The translations under genes were made by a program, and so were the position numbers. A DNA stretch of 39,921 nt, from IMG/VR virus record IMGVR_UViG_3300037313_000660, positions 1-39,921 of that record, one strand, 5' to 3'. The DNA is from a virus (taxonomy: Duplodnaviria; Caudoviricetes). A model generated the notes under the pieces. That model ran no database searches and was not told the origin of the DNA. It saw only the letters and a list, made by a program, of their open reading frames with translations. Position 1 is the stretch's first letter, and each line of letters opens with the position of its first letter. Of the stretch, positions 1,087 through 19,584 are shown piece by piece.

Positions 1087-1151
1087 AAGTTTACAATTTG
1101 ACCCTGTATCTGAATCGAACAGATACAAGCACCATGCAGGGTAGTTTTTAG

Positions 1152-2824: not shown

Positions 2825-3369
2825 TTTATCTTATATTGATTAAATAATTTAGATGTATATAAGTCTAGCGGATTTATTCTAGGCCAGTCAGTAAATAATC
2901 TTTCTCTAGTGCCCTTATGATAAATATATCCTACTGCTTTAGTACAGAATACTTTTTTGTTTTTATTCCCTCCAATCCACACTCGTTCATCTGACCCTAA
3001 ATAGGCAGTCTCGGCAAGTAATCCAAGCCAGTCATAACTAGTGCCACAAAGTCCATTTGCGTAAGTAATTAGAATCTGTGAATCATAAACAAAATTTGGC
3101 CTTAAGATTAAAATATTGTCCTTAGTATTTTCTAGTAAGTACTGCTCTATCCTTTTTGTCCTATTAAAGCCATTTTCTGTAGCTTCATAAACATATTTTC
3201 CATCGATACATTCAACAACCAATAAACTATGACTATATCTACAATAAGGTCTTCCTAATAATCTATTCCAGATATTATCAAAGAACCTAATAAATGGAGC
3301 CAGCCATGTTCCAGGATCATTCCATTTGAAAGGAGTATATTGTAGTATGCAATCTCCGTGTTGTATCAT
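2821..3369 (-). CDS. Permuted papain-like amidase (YiiX/YebB-type NlpC/P60)
   Basis: GD near the N-terminus, His motif YSHS, YEA, YDW and C-terminal catalytic Cys in VFCTKAV: the permuted His-before-Cys order. Confidence 0.8.
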   Translation of the reverse strand: MIQHGDCILQYTPFKWNDPGTWLAPFIRFFDNIWNRLLGRPYCRYSHSLLVVECIDGKYVYEATENGFNRTKRIEQYLLENTKDNILILRPNFVYDSQILITYANGLCGTSYDWLGLLAETAYLGSDERVWIGGNKNKKVFCTKAVGYIYHKGTRERLFTDWPRINPLDLYTSKLFNQYKIN

Positions 3370-11235: not shown

Positions 11236-11886
11236 TTATCTTAAACTTGAAGCTGTACCATCCTGAGTAATTATGTTCGGATAGACAGCGTATACTTTTA
11301 ATTTTTCTTTTTCTTGAATGTCAGATAGAACGTGATCAATTGAAGCGTAAAGATTTTTTGTTTGATCAAGTAGGGTCTGGACAACTGAACTATCAACTAC
11401 ATAAGCATGAGTTAGCCAGCATCTTTCTGCCTTATAAATTCCTATTCCATCTACCTCTGACACTTTTTCTTTTAATGCTTTCTTTTCTCCTTCGATCACT
11501 CCTTTATCGTAATTCCATTGGCCTAAATAAAGCATGTCATATTCTGGAACTTCTGTATAAACCTTATTAATCACATTTAAGAAATCAGTACAGAAAAGGG
11601 CATCGTCTTCTAGGATTAAAGTTTTCTTCCATCCATTCTTTTTAATCAACTTGTAAATTGTCCGGTGGCTTAAGAAACATCCTTTTTCTCCGTTGTTAAG
11701 TTCTTTCTTAACATCTTGTATATAATATTCTTTGTATTCTTCATTATTCCAGTCAACAGCTCCTCCGTGTATCGCTTCAAATCTTTCAGCAACTATTCCA
11801 AGCGTTGTTAGCCGTTCTTTCATATTCCTGAATCGGTCAGCTCTGTTCTTAGAATTAATCCAGAATATCTTATCAAACATTTTCAT
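11236..11886 (-). CDS. Glycosyltransferase family 25
   Basis: IFWIN....DR, ERFEAI.G, GEKGCFLSH, LILEDDA, THAYVV and IDH motifs. Confidence 0.9.
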   Translation of the reverse strand: MKMFDKIFWINSKNRADRFRNMKERLTTLGIVAERFEAIHGGAVDWNNEEYKEYYIQDVKKELNNGEKGCFLSHRTIYKLIKKNGWKKTLILEDDALFCTDFLNVINKVYTEVPEYDMLYLGQWNYDKGVIEGEKKALKEKVSEVDGIGIYKAERCWLTHAYVVDSSVVQTLLDQTKNLYASIDHVLSDIQEKEKLKVYAVYPNIITQDGTASSLR

Positions 11887-12542
11887 CTTTTCTTCTCTCC
11901 TATATGAAGTATTCTGTGATTGTCTTCTTTGGTTCCTAAATAGGAAAAGTAAAGTCCTGGATTCTTTCTTAGATAGAAATCCTTAAGTTGATACTCTCCA
12001 AAAGGAAATACATCTTGCACCCAATGCTTTTTATATAATGATGGATTAAATGTGAAATGATCTCTGTGGATTACTATATCAGTGCCGGACACGTTTGCGC
12101 TTCTCCATCTTTCGGGTCTGGTTTTCATTAAAGAACCTGCATGTTTTTCGTCATCAAACCACGCTTGTCTAACTAATGCACATTGAACAATAATTGGATT
12201 ATCTAAAACCTTCATTAAAGTTTTGATTTCTACCTTTTCTAAATAGACAAAATCGTTCTCCTGGTGAAATACATAGTCAACATCTTCAGGAATAAGTGAC
12301 CATACTTTTCTTACTGTCTCGTTTACTCCTAAATTAGTTTCGTTAAATACAACCTTATCAACTTTGTGCTTTTTGCAAAGTTTCTTAATTGTTTGTTCGT
12401 CTCTTTCTTCAGGCCAATCATCAATAAGAATTTTAGTCACCTCTGAACCTTCTGGAAAAATTACATTCTCACTAAAGCTTTTTAGGCTTTGAGCTAAATA
12501 ATCGTTCCGTCCGTCATTTATAATTATTACACAGAATTTCAT
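11883..12542 (-). CDS. GT-A fold glycosyltransferase (GT2-like)
   Basis: ILIDD, NLG and YVFHQENDF (DxD-equivalent) motifs; C-terminal HIG. Confidence 0.8.
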   Translation of the reverse strand: MKFCVIIINDGRNDYLAQSLKSFSENVIFPEGSEVTKILIDDWPEERDEQTIKKLCKKHKVDKVVFNETNLGVNETVRKVWSLIPEDVDYVFHQENDFVYLEKVEIKTLMKVLDNPIIVQCALVRQAWFDDEKHAGSLMKTRPERWRSANVSGTDIVIHRDHFTFNPSLYKKHWVQDVFPFGEYQLKDFYLRKNPGLYFSYLGTKEDNHRILHIGEKKR

Positions 12543-13153
12543 TTCTTAAAAATTAGGTTTTCGTAATTCTTATAATGTACCTTCATACCAAACTTTGCAC
12601 AGTATTGAATAAATTTTAAATCACATACCGAATTAGTCTCAACACACAAAAGTTTACATCCAACTTCATTAAGATCTATCTGAGAAAGTATTTCGAAGTC
12701 AAGACCTTCTGCATCTATAGTTATAAAGTCGAATTTCTTATAGGATGATTTTTCAAGAAGAGTTTTAAATGTGATTGCCTTACAAGTTGAATTTGAAAAC
12801 TGATTATTAGATCCTTTCCATCTTTCTAACTCTTCTTTTTTAAGAGTACTTAGTAGTGACGAATCCCCTTTATTTAAATGAGTGCCAGATTCAAAAAACT
12901 CAAACTCCCCTTCTTTATCTGAAATGGCTACATTAAAAACCTTAATACTTTTTCCTTGGTGAACTTCGAATATTTTATTGTATGCTTCCTTGCTAGGCTC
13001 TACCAAAACTCCGTTCCAACCTTGTTGAATTAAAGCGTATGAATTACTTAAAGTAATCCCATCATTACTACCAATATCCAAAACAGTCCCTTTGTAGTCT
13101 CCAAAGAAATCAAGTATTATCTTTTGTTCTCCGTTCTGTGAATAATCTTTCAT
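12539..13153 (-). CDS. FkbM-family SAM methyltransferase (likely start MKDYSQNGEQ at 13153)
   Basis: YSQNGE, LDIGSNDG..LSNS, GVLVEP, FITIDAEGLDFEIL and LCVE motifs. Confidence 0.9.
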   Translation of the reverse strand: MKDYSQNGEQKIILDFFGDYKGTVLDIGSNDGITLSNSYALIQQGWNGVLVEPSKEAYNKIFEVHQGKSIKVFNVAISDKEGEFEFFESGTHLNKGDSSLLSTLKKEELERWKGSNNQFSNSTCKAITFKTLLEKSSYKKFDFITIDAEGLDFEILSQIDLNEVGCKLLCVETNSVCDLKFIQYCAKFGMKVHYKNYENLIFKK

Positions 13154-13154
13154 A

Positions 13155-13826
13155 TTACATTCCCCTACAGCTAAATATGACATTCTCTAAATTGTCCGGA
13201 TAGTATGAAACAAACTTATTAAAGGCATATAGTTTCATTCCTAGTTTACCAGCTATTAAAGAGGCGCATGATTGATCTTGTCTGTGAAATTGAAATCTTG
13301 GATCAGTGCTTTGATTATCATGTAATCTTGAACCTAGAAAGGCTCCATCTTTTGCAGCTTGAATCCATGTTTCTATAAATTGTTTTGCTAACGGATTATC
13401 CACATAGACTCCAAATAACCCAGTTTGACAATCAGGAATAAATTCAGCCTCATCTCTTGTTAATCCGAAATACTCAATGCATTTATCTGAGCAAGATTGG
13501 GCGCAATTATATCCTGACTGCCCTAAGTAATAACCATGATGATTAATGTGATCAAATAAAGGCTCTACAGGATTGATTAACCACATTGAACAATCAGCCC
13601 AGATAATGTGAGTATAGCCAGCTTTTAAAGCCTCTTCAAAGGCAGCAGCTTTCACATTATAAGGGCATGATTTATCATAATTATCGTTAGGCCATTCATT
13701 AGTCCAGGTCATAATATCCCACGGATACCCATGAACATTAAGAGACTTTAATAATCTCTTTTGTCCTTGTGGATACCATCCTCCAAGTGCTGCATTAATA
13801 ATGACCGCTTTATTATTTGAATCCAT
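13155..13826 (-). CDS. GT-A fold nucleotide-sugar transferase
   Basis: K...F.EA...GY.HIIWADC and HRQDQS motifs. Confidence 0.7.
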   Translation of the reverse strand: MDSNNKAVIINAALGGWYPQGQKRLLKSLNVHGYPWDIMTWTNEWPNDNYDKSCPYNVKAAAFEEALKAGYTHIIWADCSMWLINPVEPLFDHINHHGYYLGQSGYNCAQSCSDKCIEYFGLTRDEAEFIPDCQTGLFGVYVDNPLAKQFIETWIQAAKDGAFLGSRLHDNQSTDPRFQFHRQDQSCASLIAGKLGMKLYAFNKFVSYYPDNLENVIFSCRGM

Positions 13827-14437
13827 TATTTAATTCCGTATTTCTTATTATGGTCTTCGTGTTCGTATCTGTAGTAATAAAGAACTCTATCAATGAAGTT
13901 CTCAGACTTGATAAAAGGTTTTAATCTCATACAGTAATCATAATCTTCTCCGTACCTCATATCTTTAAACCCAGCTTTTAAAGCGAGTTCTCTTTTTACT
14001 GGAGTCTTATGATAAATAGTCCTTACATACTTAAACCCGTCCTGATTTTCTCCCCAGTTTGCGTATGAGTTAGAAGCTTTTGCTCTTCCAGTATATCTTC
14101 CCTCTTCAAAACAGTCAATCAAAAACCCTACTGCATCAGCACCCAGGTTATTTAAGATTTGATCCATGTAGTCATCGCTTACTAAATCGTCATCGTCTAT
14201 GAATACCACATAGTCTCCAAGGGCATTTTCTAATAATCTTTGACGTTTGGCACCAATTGAAACTTCTTTATTATCCTTATCGATTAAGATTTCAACTGGC
14301 ATTACTCCAGAATGAATGGCTAATTGAACTAACTTGTCTAACTGAGGATCAAGGATATTTAATAATTGCTGAAGTTTAGCTTCTCTGCCTTCGACAGTTG
14401 GAATCAGAATAGATAAGGCTGTTTTATTTGTAGCCAT
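13826..14437 (-). CDS. Glycosyltransferase family 2
   Basis: LSILIPT, GAKRQ.L...A.GDYVVFIDDDD, GEDYD and LYYY motifs. Confidence 0.9.
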   Translation of the reverse strand: MATNKTALSILIPTVEGREAKLQQLLNILDPQLDKLVQLAIHSGVMPVEILIDKDNKEVSIGAKRQRLLENALGDYVVFIDDDDLVSDDYMDQILNNLGADAVGFLIDCFEEGRYTGRAKASNSYANWGENQDGFKYVRTIYHKTPVKRELALKAGFKDMRYGEDYDYCMRLKPFIKSENFIDRVLYYYRYEHEDHNKKYGIK

Positions 14438-15107
14438 TCGCCCTCCTTGTTATAAAGTTGTTTTCGTCGTGAGTCCAGTACTTATCATTCCTTAAATACA
14501 AGGAATCAAATTGAACTTTTCCACCCCAGGAAGGATGTTGATGTTTAACTATTACTGTTTCTATGAATTTTATTTTCTTAAGTGCTTTTGCAACTTCCGT
14601 GTATTCGTTGTCACAAAAGAAAGATTTATAGGAAGGATGATAGATGTACCCGAAGCGGTTATAATACTTATTGCCAATACACGAAAGCGTACTTATAAAC
14701 CTTTGATCTGATCCATCATGAAACCATAAGCACCCGTCTGTATCTGGATATTCTACTTTCATTGATTCTCTGATTAGATTATCCCATCCTTGCGCCTTGC
14801 ATTCCATATCATCAGAGATCAATAATAAAATATCCCATTTGTCAGCCTTTTCAATATCCCTATTACAAGCTTCAATTTTACTTATTCCGTGTCCTGCGAA
14901 AACTTTGACATTAGGATGAAAATACATAGCGGTTTCGATGACTTCATGAGTCATTGACTTGTCATCTATATCGTAGGAGATTATATATTGAATGGAATCG
15001 TTATCAGATGCCTTGGCAATGTATTCTGATAGAGTTTTGAGAAACAGTTGAGGTCTGCTTCTTGTGGGATATTTAACTAAAATATTGTATTTGTTTTGTG
15101 TTGGCAT
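14424..15107 (-). CDS. Glycosyltransferase (GT2-like)
   Basis: PTRSRP, YDIDD, ACN, LLISDD, FFCDNE and H.HP motifs. Confidence 0.85.
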   Translation of the reverse strand: MPTQNKYNILVKYPTRSRPQLFLKTLSEYIAKASDNDSIQYIISYDIDDKSMTHEVIETAMYFHPNVKVFAGHGISKIEACNRDIEKADKWDILLLISDDMECKAQGWDNLIRESMKVEYPDTDGCLWFHDGSDQRFISTLSCIGNKYYNRFGYIYHPSYKSFFCDNEYTEVAKALKKIKFIETVIVKHQHPSWGGKVQFDSLYLRNDKYWTHDENNFITRRANGYK

Positions 15108-18081: not shown

Positions 18082-18657
18082 ATGGCAAAATTAAAAGTAA
18101 GTATTAAAGGGACAGCTCCATTGCTAATGCATAATGGACAATTAGCAGATCCAACAAATCAACATGCTCAACTCCTAAAAGAGTTAAACTCTAAAAGAAA
18201 GAAAACAGAAGAAGATCTAAGGGCAATAGCAGATGCTGAATGGAGAGGTGGTCTTTATGTAAATGAAGATGAGGAAATAATTATACCTGCCCTAAATTTT
18301 GAAGCATCAATAAAGAATGGAGCAAAAAAATCTAAACTTGGCAAGCAAGTACAGGCAGGTTTGATGGTTGATCAGGATGCTATTCTAGAATTCAAAGGGT
18401 CTAATAAAAAAATAGAAGACTTAATAATAGATAAAAATTACAGATTATATATTGGAGTAAAAGTAAATATGGGATCTCGGATAATGAGAACGAGACCTAT
18501 GTTTAAAGATTGGGGAGCTACATTTGAAATTATTTACAATGACAATGTATTGGATAAAAAACAAGTAATTAAATCAATTGAAGATGCTGGAATGTATTGT
18601 GGAATTGGAGATTGGTTGCCTAGATATGGTAGATTTGAAATACAAAACATTGAATAA
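18082..18657 (+). CDS. Stand-alone Cas7/RAMP-like RNA-binding protein (Vipr-like)
   Basis: RAMP-like hallmarks: first strand VSIKGTAPLLMH, IIIPALNFEASIKNGA (compare the IPGSSLKG motif), RTRPMFKDWGATFEI, and C-terminal glycine-rich loop GIGDWLPRYGRFEI. Confidence 0.8.
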   Translation: MAKLKVSIKGTAPLLMHNGQLADPTNQHAQLLKELNSKRKKTEEDLRAIADAEWRGGLYVNEDEEIIIPALNFEASIKNGAKKSKLGKQVQAGLMVDQDAILEFKGSNKKIEDLIIDKNYRLYIGVKVNMGSRIMRTRPMFKDWGATFEIIYNDNVLDKKQVIKSIEDAGMYCGIGDWLPRYGRFEIQNIE

Positions 18658-18659
18658 CT

Positions 18660-19115
18660 ATGGTAGAAAAATTAGAAAAGACAATTGGCTCTTTCGAGAA
18701 AGGCCAATTCATTTCTCCAGAAATAATAGAAAACATTTTAGGAGAGCAAAGAACTAGTCCAAGTTATCAATTTGGAAGCATGAAACTAGTAAAGGATATT
18801 AAAAAGCATATGTCAGATCATGGAATACATGTAACTGTTATCTCTGAATCTTATGGTATTAGAATTTTAACGGATAGCGAGGCAAGTGCATACAATACAA
18901 AAAGATATTGCAAAGGACTTGAGATTATAGAAAGATCTTATGATGACGCAAAATCTGTTGACGCAAATAATTTAACCAAGGAAGAAGAGGAAATTCATAA
19001 TAAAAGACTTGTATTTATAGGACGAGGAATTGACTCTATAAAACAAGAATATAAAAAAGACATTAAAATACCACTAGGACATTATAAAAATAATCTTCCT
19101 AGAATGTTGAAATAA
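18660..19115 (+). CDS. Accessory protein of the RAMP/pentamer-array locus, function unknown
   Basis: Starts 2 nt after the RAMP-like gene and ends 16 nt before the first repeat tract; GIRILTDSEA followed by long helices. Confidence 0.7.
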   Translation: MVEKLEKTIGSFEKGQFISPEIIENILGEQRTSPSYQFGSMKLVKDIKKHMSDHGIHVTVISESYGIRILTDSEASAYNTKRYCKGLEIIERSYDDAKSVDANNLTKEEEEIHNKRLVFIGRGIDSIKQEYKKDIKIPLGHYKNNLPRMLK

Positions 19116-19131
19116 TTTCATATGTGGCTCC

Positions 19132-19186
19132 GGTGGGGCTTGGTGAGGTACGGCGAGGTTCAGTGGGGTATGGTTCGGCATGGAAT
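19132..19186 (+). repeat. GGY-NN pentamer tract 1 (putative guide RNA)
   Basis: GGTgg GGCtt GGTga GGTac GGCga GGTtc AGTgg GGTat GGTtc GGCat, closed by GGAAT; 9 of 10 units start with GGY. Confidence 0.9.
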
Positions 19187-19232
19187 TACTCAGTCAATGG
19201 TGATTTATCAGGTTCGATTCCTGACTGAGTAC
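19187..19232 (+). ncRNA. Mini tRNA-like element 1
   Basis: 7-bp stem TACTCAG/CTGAGTA, mini hairpin TCA-ATGG-TGA, T-arm TCAGG-TTCGATT-CCTGA. Confidence 0.85.
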
Positions 19233-19238
19233 AATTTA

Positions 19239-19293
19239 TGTGCGGCAGAGAATGGCGGGGTGCGGTGTTGTATGGCTTGGTTAGGTATGGAAT
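19239..19293 (+). repeat. GGY-NN pentamer tract 2 (putative guide RNA)
   Basis: TGTgc GGCag AGAat GGCgg GGTgc GGTgt TGTat GGCtt GGTta GGTat, closed by GGAAT; 7 of 10 units start with GGY. Confidence 0.88.
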
Positions 19294-19339
19294 AAGACAG
19301 TATGTGGATATTTACCAAGTTCGATTCTTGGCTGTCTTC
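19294..19339 (+). ncRNA. Mini tRNA-like element 2
   Basis: 7-bp stem AAGACAG/CTGTCTT, mini hairpin TAT-GTGG-ATA, T-arm CCAAG-TTCGATT-CTTGG. Confidence 0.85.
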
Positions 19340-19342
19340 TTA

Positions 19343-19417
19343 AGTCTGGCTAGGTATGGTTTGGTTTTGTATGGTACGGTTCCGTGTGGTGTGTCACGGT
19401 TCGGTACAGTTCTGATT
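19343..19417 (+). repeat. GGY-NN pentamer tract 3 (putative guide RNA)
   Basis: AGTct GGCta GGTat GGTtt GGTtt TGTat GGTac GGTtc CGTgt GGTgt GTCac GGTtc GGTac AGTtc, then TGATT; 9 of 14 units start with GGY. Confidence 0.88.
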
Positions 19418-19448
19418 AGACCTATATTAATTTATAGGTCTTTAATTT
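19418..19448 (+). terminator. Hairpin closing the array
   Basis: AGACCTATA-ttaatt-TATAGGTCT (9-bp stem) followed by TTAATTT. Confidence 0.65.
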
Positions 19449-19473
19449 ACTATTAAATATTAATAATTAATAC

Positions 19474-19568
19474 TGTGGTGTGGCGGAACTGGTAGACGCT
19501 AAATGTTGTGATTCTGTAGCTAAACAACTGAGTATACAGATTTGGAGGTTCGAATCCTTCCACCACAG
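19474..19568 (+). tRNA. tRNA-like gene or pseudo-tRNA, anticodon undetermined
   Basis: Acceptor stem TGTGGTG/CACCACA, Leu-like D-arm GCG-GAACTGGTAGA-CGC, T-arm GGAGG-TTCGAAT-CCTTC; no canonical anticodon arm. Confidence 0.7.
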
Positions 19569-19584
19569 CAAAATAAAATGAAGT

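Follow-up and report, generated by a model that had tools for sequence, protein, structure and literature searches.

Putative mini-tRNA separators between the guides of a phage VIPR array

Two small tRNA-like elements in the array described here may explain how VIPR arrays are resolved into single guides, with predictions that are exact to the base. The array is located in a 39,921-nucleotide stretch of Caudoviricetes DNA (IMG/VR record IMGVR_UViG_3300037313_000660, positions 1 to 39,921), hereafter the window, a phage contig with a G+C content of 33.5% which encodes terminase, portal and endolysin proteins and for which the matching reads derive from soil and rhizosphere DNA runs. The best matches of the terminase reach only 26-30%, and a phage-match search with one ORF of the window returned no match. 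An initial annotation of the sequence proposed that the two elements recruit host tRNA-processing enzymes and thereby release individual guides from a precursor. On the comparative evidence presented below, they are probably anticodon-less mini-tRNAs which are likely to serve as cut marks for the host tRNA-processing machinery, a reading to which we assign a probability of roughly 0.65.

The presence of a SUSP1-like vipr gene and of vap, with three tracts of GGYNN units behind them, identifies the locus as a phage VIPR locus and the array as a vrRNA array. It is the sole GGYNN array in the window, and the following features are distinguished:

18082-18657, + strand: vipr, coding for a RAMP-like guide-binding protein of 191 aa (phmmer, PHROG)
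18660-19115, + strand: vap, coding for a protein of 151 aa (homologous ORFs beside vipr elsewhere)
19127-19186, + strand: guide 1, a GGYNN tract of 11 units ending in GGAAT (5-nt GGY phase)
19187-19232, + strand: putative mini-tRNA 1 (covariation with element 2; 26.7 bits with covariance model R1, in whose training set it was included)
19187-19193/19225-19231, + strand: acceptor stem of element 1, with GG at 19199-19200, T stem at 19208-19212/19220-19224 and T loop at 19213-19219
19233-19293, + strand: guide 2, a short leader followed by 10 GGYNN units and GGAAT (5-nt GGY phase)
19294-19339, + strand: putative mini-tRNA 2 (covariation with element 1; 20.8 bits with model R1, in whose training set it was likewise included)
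19294-19300/19332-19338, + strand: acceptor stem of element 2, with GG at 19306-19307 and T stem at 19315-19319/19327-19331
19340-19412, + strand: guide 3, about 14 units, several of them degenerate, with no mini-tRNA behind it
19418-19449, + strand: terminator-like hairpin (9 pairs, 19418-19441) with a T-rich tail, at the end of the array
19474-19569, + strand: tRNA-like gene called as tRNA-His (ARAGORN; Rfam tRNA, 33.8 bits)

The vipr product matches SUSP1 Vipr (PDB 36pp) over 186 residues (residues 3-188; phmmer E-value 6.1e-34), with 34% identity between the two proteins in tblastn, and ORF 18082-18657 is assigned to PHROG 4652, while a Pfam search with the protein returned no match. The relatives of vap detected with phmmer are ORFs adjoining vipr in many other loci (E-values down to 2e-20), and an iterated vap profile reaches the gene neighbouring vipr in SUSP1 (E-value 1.4e-29). 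Pairwise BLASTP of vap against this neighbour gave no match and the sole match of vap in a database search is vap itself; its product is likely a vap1-like accessory protein. SUSP1 and a P. fulva prophage serve as the reference for VIPR type II (bioRxiv 10.64898/2026.04.26.720920), in which a vipr-vap operon is likewise phage-encoded and followed by GGY/NN tracts of 9-16 units. With 11, 10 and about 14 YNNGG units, the three tracts beside vipr fall within this range. With regard to type II, the iterated vap profile reaches the SUSP1 neighbour while pairwise BLASTP does not, and the window Vipr falls outside any supported clade containing SUSP1 in the Vipr tree. Where the described SUSP1 guides retain a 3' pseudoknot tail, the window carries spacers between the guides which fold as an acceptor and T arm, while the SUSP1 spacers are about 73 nt long, differ in sequence and do not score with the mini-tRNA model. 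Four terminator-like sites occur in the region against 0.6 expected. Promoter-like sites are at chance level (11 versus 11.1 expected), and a Bacteroidota promoter motif shows no enrichment (51 versus 57 expected).

Both spacers are 46 nt in length and directly follow GGAAT, as first described, and they share one architecture in differing sequences, being identical at 31 of 46 positions. Each can be drawn as a 7-bp acceptor stem, a 3-bp hairpin with an NTGG loop, TTTA, a 5-bp T stem with the loop TTCGATT and a final C, so that a coaxial acceptor-T helix of about 12 bp (7+5) carries a 7-nt T loop. The assertion that every stem difference is compensated holds throughout: seven of the 15 pairs are changed on both sides (three in the acceptor, two in the D-like hairpin and two in the T stem), none on one side alone and none is broken, and one of the 16 unpaired positions differs. 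An anticodon arm is indeed absent and the tRNA cloverleaf (RF00005) is not formed. Neither element is called by ARAGORN or at the Rfam gathering threshold, no Rfam family covers them, and the mascRNA-menRNA family (RF01684) has no match in the window. When the two inter-tract spacers were each shuffled 20000 times with their dinucleotides preserved, an equally good acceptor and T-arm fold arose 0 times for one and once for the other. The folding z-scores are -1.87 and -1.36, with a minimum structure that lacks the T arm. The drawn folds are 2.3 and 0.1 kcal/mol less stable than the minimum, with a further cost of 0.3 and 0.7 for the D-like hairpin, and when the naked 326-nt array is folded to its lowest energy, element 1 pairs with guide 2 instead. 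The fold cannot be picked out by thermodynamics alone, and the case for it is built on covariation and conservation. The array sequence is identical in four DNA runs where covered, a single G>A change being located in vap, and there is thus no covariation at the strain level.

Scans with Vipr proteins yielded 116 loci, and scans for a T arm followed by a tract yielded 124 viral, 121 genome and 119 metagenome loci, with Vipr present in only three of the 121 genome and 20 of the 119 metagenome loci. A covariance model was trained on 77 elements chosen for their pairing and run over the 116 protein-found loci and seven named phages. This search of phage genomes, which the initial annotation had called for, recovered related elements in eight of the 64 protein-found Vipr clusters (80% identity), the other 56 being without an element. 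The carriers are the cultured phages LittleE (four elements), Trine (three) and MakoManhole (three), as well as clusters L009, L023, the L028 group, L041 and L181, while SUSP1, Medea1, phiHSIC and LESphi2 gave no match with the model. From 53 sources, picked as known or suspected carriers, 129 model matches were obtained, and three were excluded: the 3' part of a real tRNA (L122), a truncated match (L157) and a match at window positions 1097-1145 (- strand), dropped as a chance hit with no tract nearby. Across 127 distinct model matches 94.5% of the cells form pairs, compared to 61.7% when shuffled and 40-57% when slid, and double changes are seen in 10 of the 11 pairs, in an alignment that is fitted to, and leans towards, the model. 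These family counts are partly circular, as the training elements were picked for pairing and the pattern scans required a T arm and then a tract. Next to tracts, the metagenome set contributes detector calls of 48 mini, four full and four intermediate elements, although in a few cases one element is counted in two registers. The elements form a family recurring in dozens of loci. On the Vipr tree the trait requires 10-11 changes, of which 4-5 are forced by well-supported branches, and the rows nearest the window Vipr are without an element, suggesting that elements have likely been gained, lost or exchanged repeatedly.

Several of these loci show distinct arrangements. Those at L023 (3573-4330), L028 (3579-3746) and L060 (2350-2660) are AT-rich phage VIPR arrays with mini-tRNAs and degenerate units, (A/T)G(T/C)NN; in L028 a single guide with elements on both flanks is located between vipr and vap. 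The seven guides of L029 (2318-2960) are separated by spacers of 34-40 nt with a T-loop-like hairpin but without a mini-tRNA model match, and these are possibly a further reduced form of the element. In Trine (MH271318.1; L363, 3075-3354) the annotated start of the vap-like gp40 (locus position 3085) spans the array and its three mini-tRNAs, and the true start of this gene probably lies further downstream.

The features conserved across the family are those of a tRNA elbow. A GG dinucleotide, requested by no search pattern or detector, occurs at -14/-13 from T54 in 63 of the 86 detector-found elements, with an identical offset in both window elements. A hairpin of 2-3 bp closes around this GG in 94 of 121 cases versus about 53 with the halves swapped; two registers of the D hairpin exist, and a single-register D hairpin is 54% paired. 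The T stem and acceptor strand together measure 11-13 nt in 85 of the 86 elements, although many members pair 5+6 rather than 7+5. The T loop, the G53-C61 pair and the D-loop-like GG are kept across distant loci, and the conserved GG could contact the T loop to form a putative tertiary elbow.

Conservation extends past the helix, where a purine (118/127) and then a C (116/127) follow in the family sequences, and this R-then-C trailer is kept in 11 of the 11 listed elements that have no guide behind them. The family trailer is mostly RCGC, the window elements have C followed by AAT or TTA, and CCA does not appear among the common trailers. The final C noted in the initial annotation is present, but its register may differ from the one assumed, as the conserved C of most members is located one base past the discriminator, which would make it C74 rather than N73. 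Bacterial RNase P is described as contacting RCCA, tolerating hairpin substrates composed of acceptor and T stem and preferring U(-1) and A(-2) (PMC4919922, section 5.1), and the R-C trailer of the family matches two of the RCCA contacts. The leaders of both window elements end in A(-2) U(-1), while a family-wide preference for U(-1) is absent (A 46, C 37, T 30 and G 12 of 127). C74 is described as the main RNase Z anti-determinant (PMC3161902), and the RNase Z of Bacillus subtilis as being inhibited by CCA (PMC7479834). Given the C past the discriminator in 116 of the 127 sequences, a role for RNase Z appears less sure than one for RNase P.

The location of the elements with regard to the guides is equally informative. 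After the three exclusions, 101 of 126 matches are located between tracts, 14 after the last tract (mostly ahead of a gene), nine before the first (mostly just past a stop codon) and two at locus edges, while none (0/126) lies away from a tract. Among 35 arrays, called at a level of periodicity which random windows (arrays included) also reach in 369 of 3000 cases, 27 end with a guide that lacks an element and eight with an element, and eight begin with an element; three or four of these calls are borderline, L062 ends on an element when inspected by eye, and the pattern scans favour the order element-then-tract. In the 12 arrays found outside the T-arm pattern scans, including that of the window, eight end without an element and three begin with one (L028, Trine and MakoManhole). 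In most cases a stop codon precedes the first guide, and the last one often enters the next gene without an element. In L009 and L118 each guide is followed by its own hairpin tail, with a mini-tRNA between guides and none after the last. An element without an upstream guide cannot be the tail of that guide, and the elements behave as separators, not obligate tails. Their placement thus supports the punctuation of the array by the elements, as originally claimed, while the part assigned to RNase Z in releasing the guides is the weaker half of that claim. The last guide often abuts the ribosome-binding site of vipr or vap (L041, L057, L064, L073, L098, L102 and L128), an arrangement that could allow autoregulation of the operon by Vipr.

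In some arrays the separator slot is occupied by complete tRNA genes, namely tRNA-Met in L122, three tRNA-Arg in L155 and tRNA-Ile in L169, the latter heading an array in which the remaining separators are mini-tRNAs. The loci L155 and L169 are short, and a vipr gene was not observed in either. A real tRNA in this position is expected to be excised by the host. In polycistronic tRNA-gRNA multiplexing, tRNAs alternate with guides and the host enzymes release the guides; this design is synthetic, with full-length tRNAs and Cas9 guides, and L122, L155 and L169 look like its natural equivalents. Linkers of 17-25 nt and full or near-full tRNAs also occur beside tracts in L396 (1470-1714), L482 (265-322), L395, L399 and L452. 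These forms are consistent with a stepwise shrinking of tRNA genes, and real tRNA genes which once served the same role are the likely source of the elements. In the window itself, the tRNA-His call at 19474-19569 retains intact acceptor, D and T arms in the Rfam alignment, with 40 unaligned nucleotides replacing the anticodon arm. It could represent either a degenerate tRNA or, downstream of the terminator, a third tRNA-like element of greater length.

From these observations a route to single guides can be proposed. The genes vipr and vap and the whole array would share one transcript that ends at the terminator (19418-19449), in which each element would adopt an acceptor-T helix and an elbow formed by GG and T loop. 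Host RNase P, which we consider rather likely to cut at the 5' ends of the elements, would cleave at 19186/19187 and 19293/19294, leaving guides 1 and 2 with a 3' end directly after GGAAT; with an 11-bp register both cuts would shift by one base downstream. On the 3' side, past 19232 and 19339, RNase Z may cut, other nucleases may trim, or the mini-tRNA may be kept as a 5' cap; this step is the least certain part of the mechanism. The predicted product for guide 2, if cut at both sides, is 61 nt. Once separated, each GGYNN tract would be coated by Vipr as a filament of its own. The suggestion that the elements stand in for a Cas6-type nuclease fits VIPR loci, which are without Cas6, with the cleavage on which it depends being a prediction. 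Several observations count against this mechanism. The naked minimum-energy folds favour neither the T arm nor element 1, and a cut at the 5' boundary would strip guides 1 and 2 of a structured tail. The missing U(-1) preference of the family, the 5+6 pairing of many members, the lack of CCA among the common trailers and the C74, which would hinder RNase Z, likewise speak against it. Array ends are, moreover, often without an element, and guide ends can thus form without one.

One alternative is that the element is cut on its 3' side only and retained as a structured 3' tail of the upstream guide, capping the Vipr filament and protecting the RNA. The window elements start 5 nt past the last unit, right behind the tract, which is the known position of the SUSP1 pseudoknot tail; that tail is described as capping the Vipr filament in cryo-EM, and no other tail is present on guides 1 and 2. 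Such retention is nonetheless unlikely in view of the 27 of 35 arrays that leave their last guide bare and the eight that begin with an element, the separate tails of L009 and L118, the substitution of full tRNAs for the element, and the spacers of merely 6-14 nt in the VIPR arrays of L001, L019 and L043, which show long tails to be dispensable. A separator could also work uncut, as a compact insulator that halts the growth of the Vipr filament, with the guide ends arising by trimming to the Vipr footprint or through Vipr/Vap. Array ends formed without elements, the 56 of 64 protein-found clusters which have none and the plain hairpins or short spacers of many VIPR arrays would accord with this. 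An insulator would, however, need to be no more than a plain hairpin, and recognition by an enzyme that handles tRNA is indicated by the length of the helix, by the R-C trailer and by the interchange with complete tRNAs. We regard an insulating role as decidedly unlikely, and just as unlikely that the contact between GG and T loop which it entails serves stability alone.

Integration sites in tRNA genes duplicate the T arm and the 3' strand of the acceptor, the very part from which att-like 3' halves would be left by integration or recombination, and the patchy distribution of the elements on the Vipr tree (10-11 changes) would also be compatible with such remnants, or with handles for guide acquisition, that play no role at the RNA level. 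Yet the two strands of the acceptor and the GG show covariation or conservation even where copies within the same array differ in sequence, and no match among 126 is located away from a tract, which makes this origin very improbable. Least probable of all, with a chance we consider slight in the extreme, is that excised mini-tRNAs have a function of their own, as effectors or as decoys directed at translation factors or tRNA-binding defence of the host. Their products would resemble mascRNA, and two elements of L432 score 27 bits with the Rfam mascRNA model (gathering threshold 42.5), but they lack an anticodon, occur only beside guide tracts in the examined loci and are present as one copy per junction, which fits punctuation. 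Cleavage by the host tRNA-processing machinery is the reading followed here, and at the level of the family we lean, somewhat more cautiously, towards the view that phages of several host phyla have repeatedly turned tRNA genes into anticodon-less marks of about 40-46 nt for guide maturation by RNase P.

Cut marks between VIPR guides have a precedent in the hammerhead-interspersed arrays which, together with staggered arrays and pseudoknot tails, are described in passages of the VIPR discovery preprint that name no host enzyme (10.64898/2026.04.26.720920). Those arrays likewise place a processing signal between adjacent guides, in the form of a self-cleaving ribozyme or an overlap, whereas the window elements are predicted to need a host enzyme. 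Engineered t-elements flanking a guide release crRNA through RNases P and Z in Haloferax, where they replace Cas6 (PMC6546412); that system is archaeal and engineered, while the window holds a natural phage arrangement with predicted cleavage. The mascRNA/menRNA and plant mitochondrial t-elements described in PMC4919922 are small tRNA mimics that mark cuts by RNases P and Z within transcripts other than tRNA, but they are eukaryotic and occur at single sites, in contrast to the shorter, repeated and anticodon-less phage elements of about 40-46 nt. The term tRNA has no occurrence in the main texts of the VIPR preprints or in the supplement text searched, none of its 13 occurrences in the language-model preprint concerns VIPR, and a literature search confined to text found no report of tRNA-like VIPR spacers. 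The feature is real and belongs to a system, VIPR, that is itself published. If the proposed route is correct, the mini-tRNA separators would add to the natural substrates of RNase P a new family of very small size, and would represent a guide-processing route for RAMP proteins that needs no Cas6, and a minimal natural tRNA-guide polycistron, the counterpart of engineered tRNA-guide arrays, with its full- and mini-tRNA stages visible in one array. They would also be of use where several guides are to be expressed together in bacteria, as separators that are compact and diverse in sequence. The cultured phages LittleE (on M. smegmatis) and Trine and MakoManhole (on Gordonia), whose hosts are harmless, make the answer testable.

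Exact matches to guides 1-3 (10, 10 and 11 dinucleotides, allowing for the 1-nt skip rule) number zero in viral contigs, and the best results of a local mismatch scan (16/22, 16/20 and 19/28 for the three guides) are not above background. If the skip is placed at the wobble position, the reverse complement of 19130-19412 translates into a plausible peptide string for each of the three guides, which is what targets within coding genes would lead one to expect. Elsewhere in the window, positions 11236-15107 (- strand) contain a cluster of glycosyltransferase-like genes together with a methyltransferase-like gene, according to their PHROG matches.
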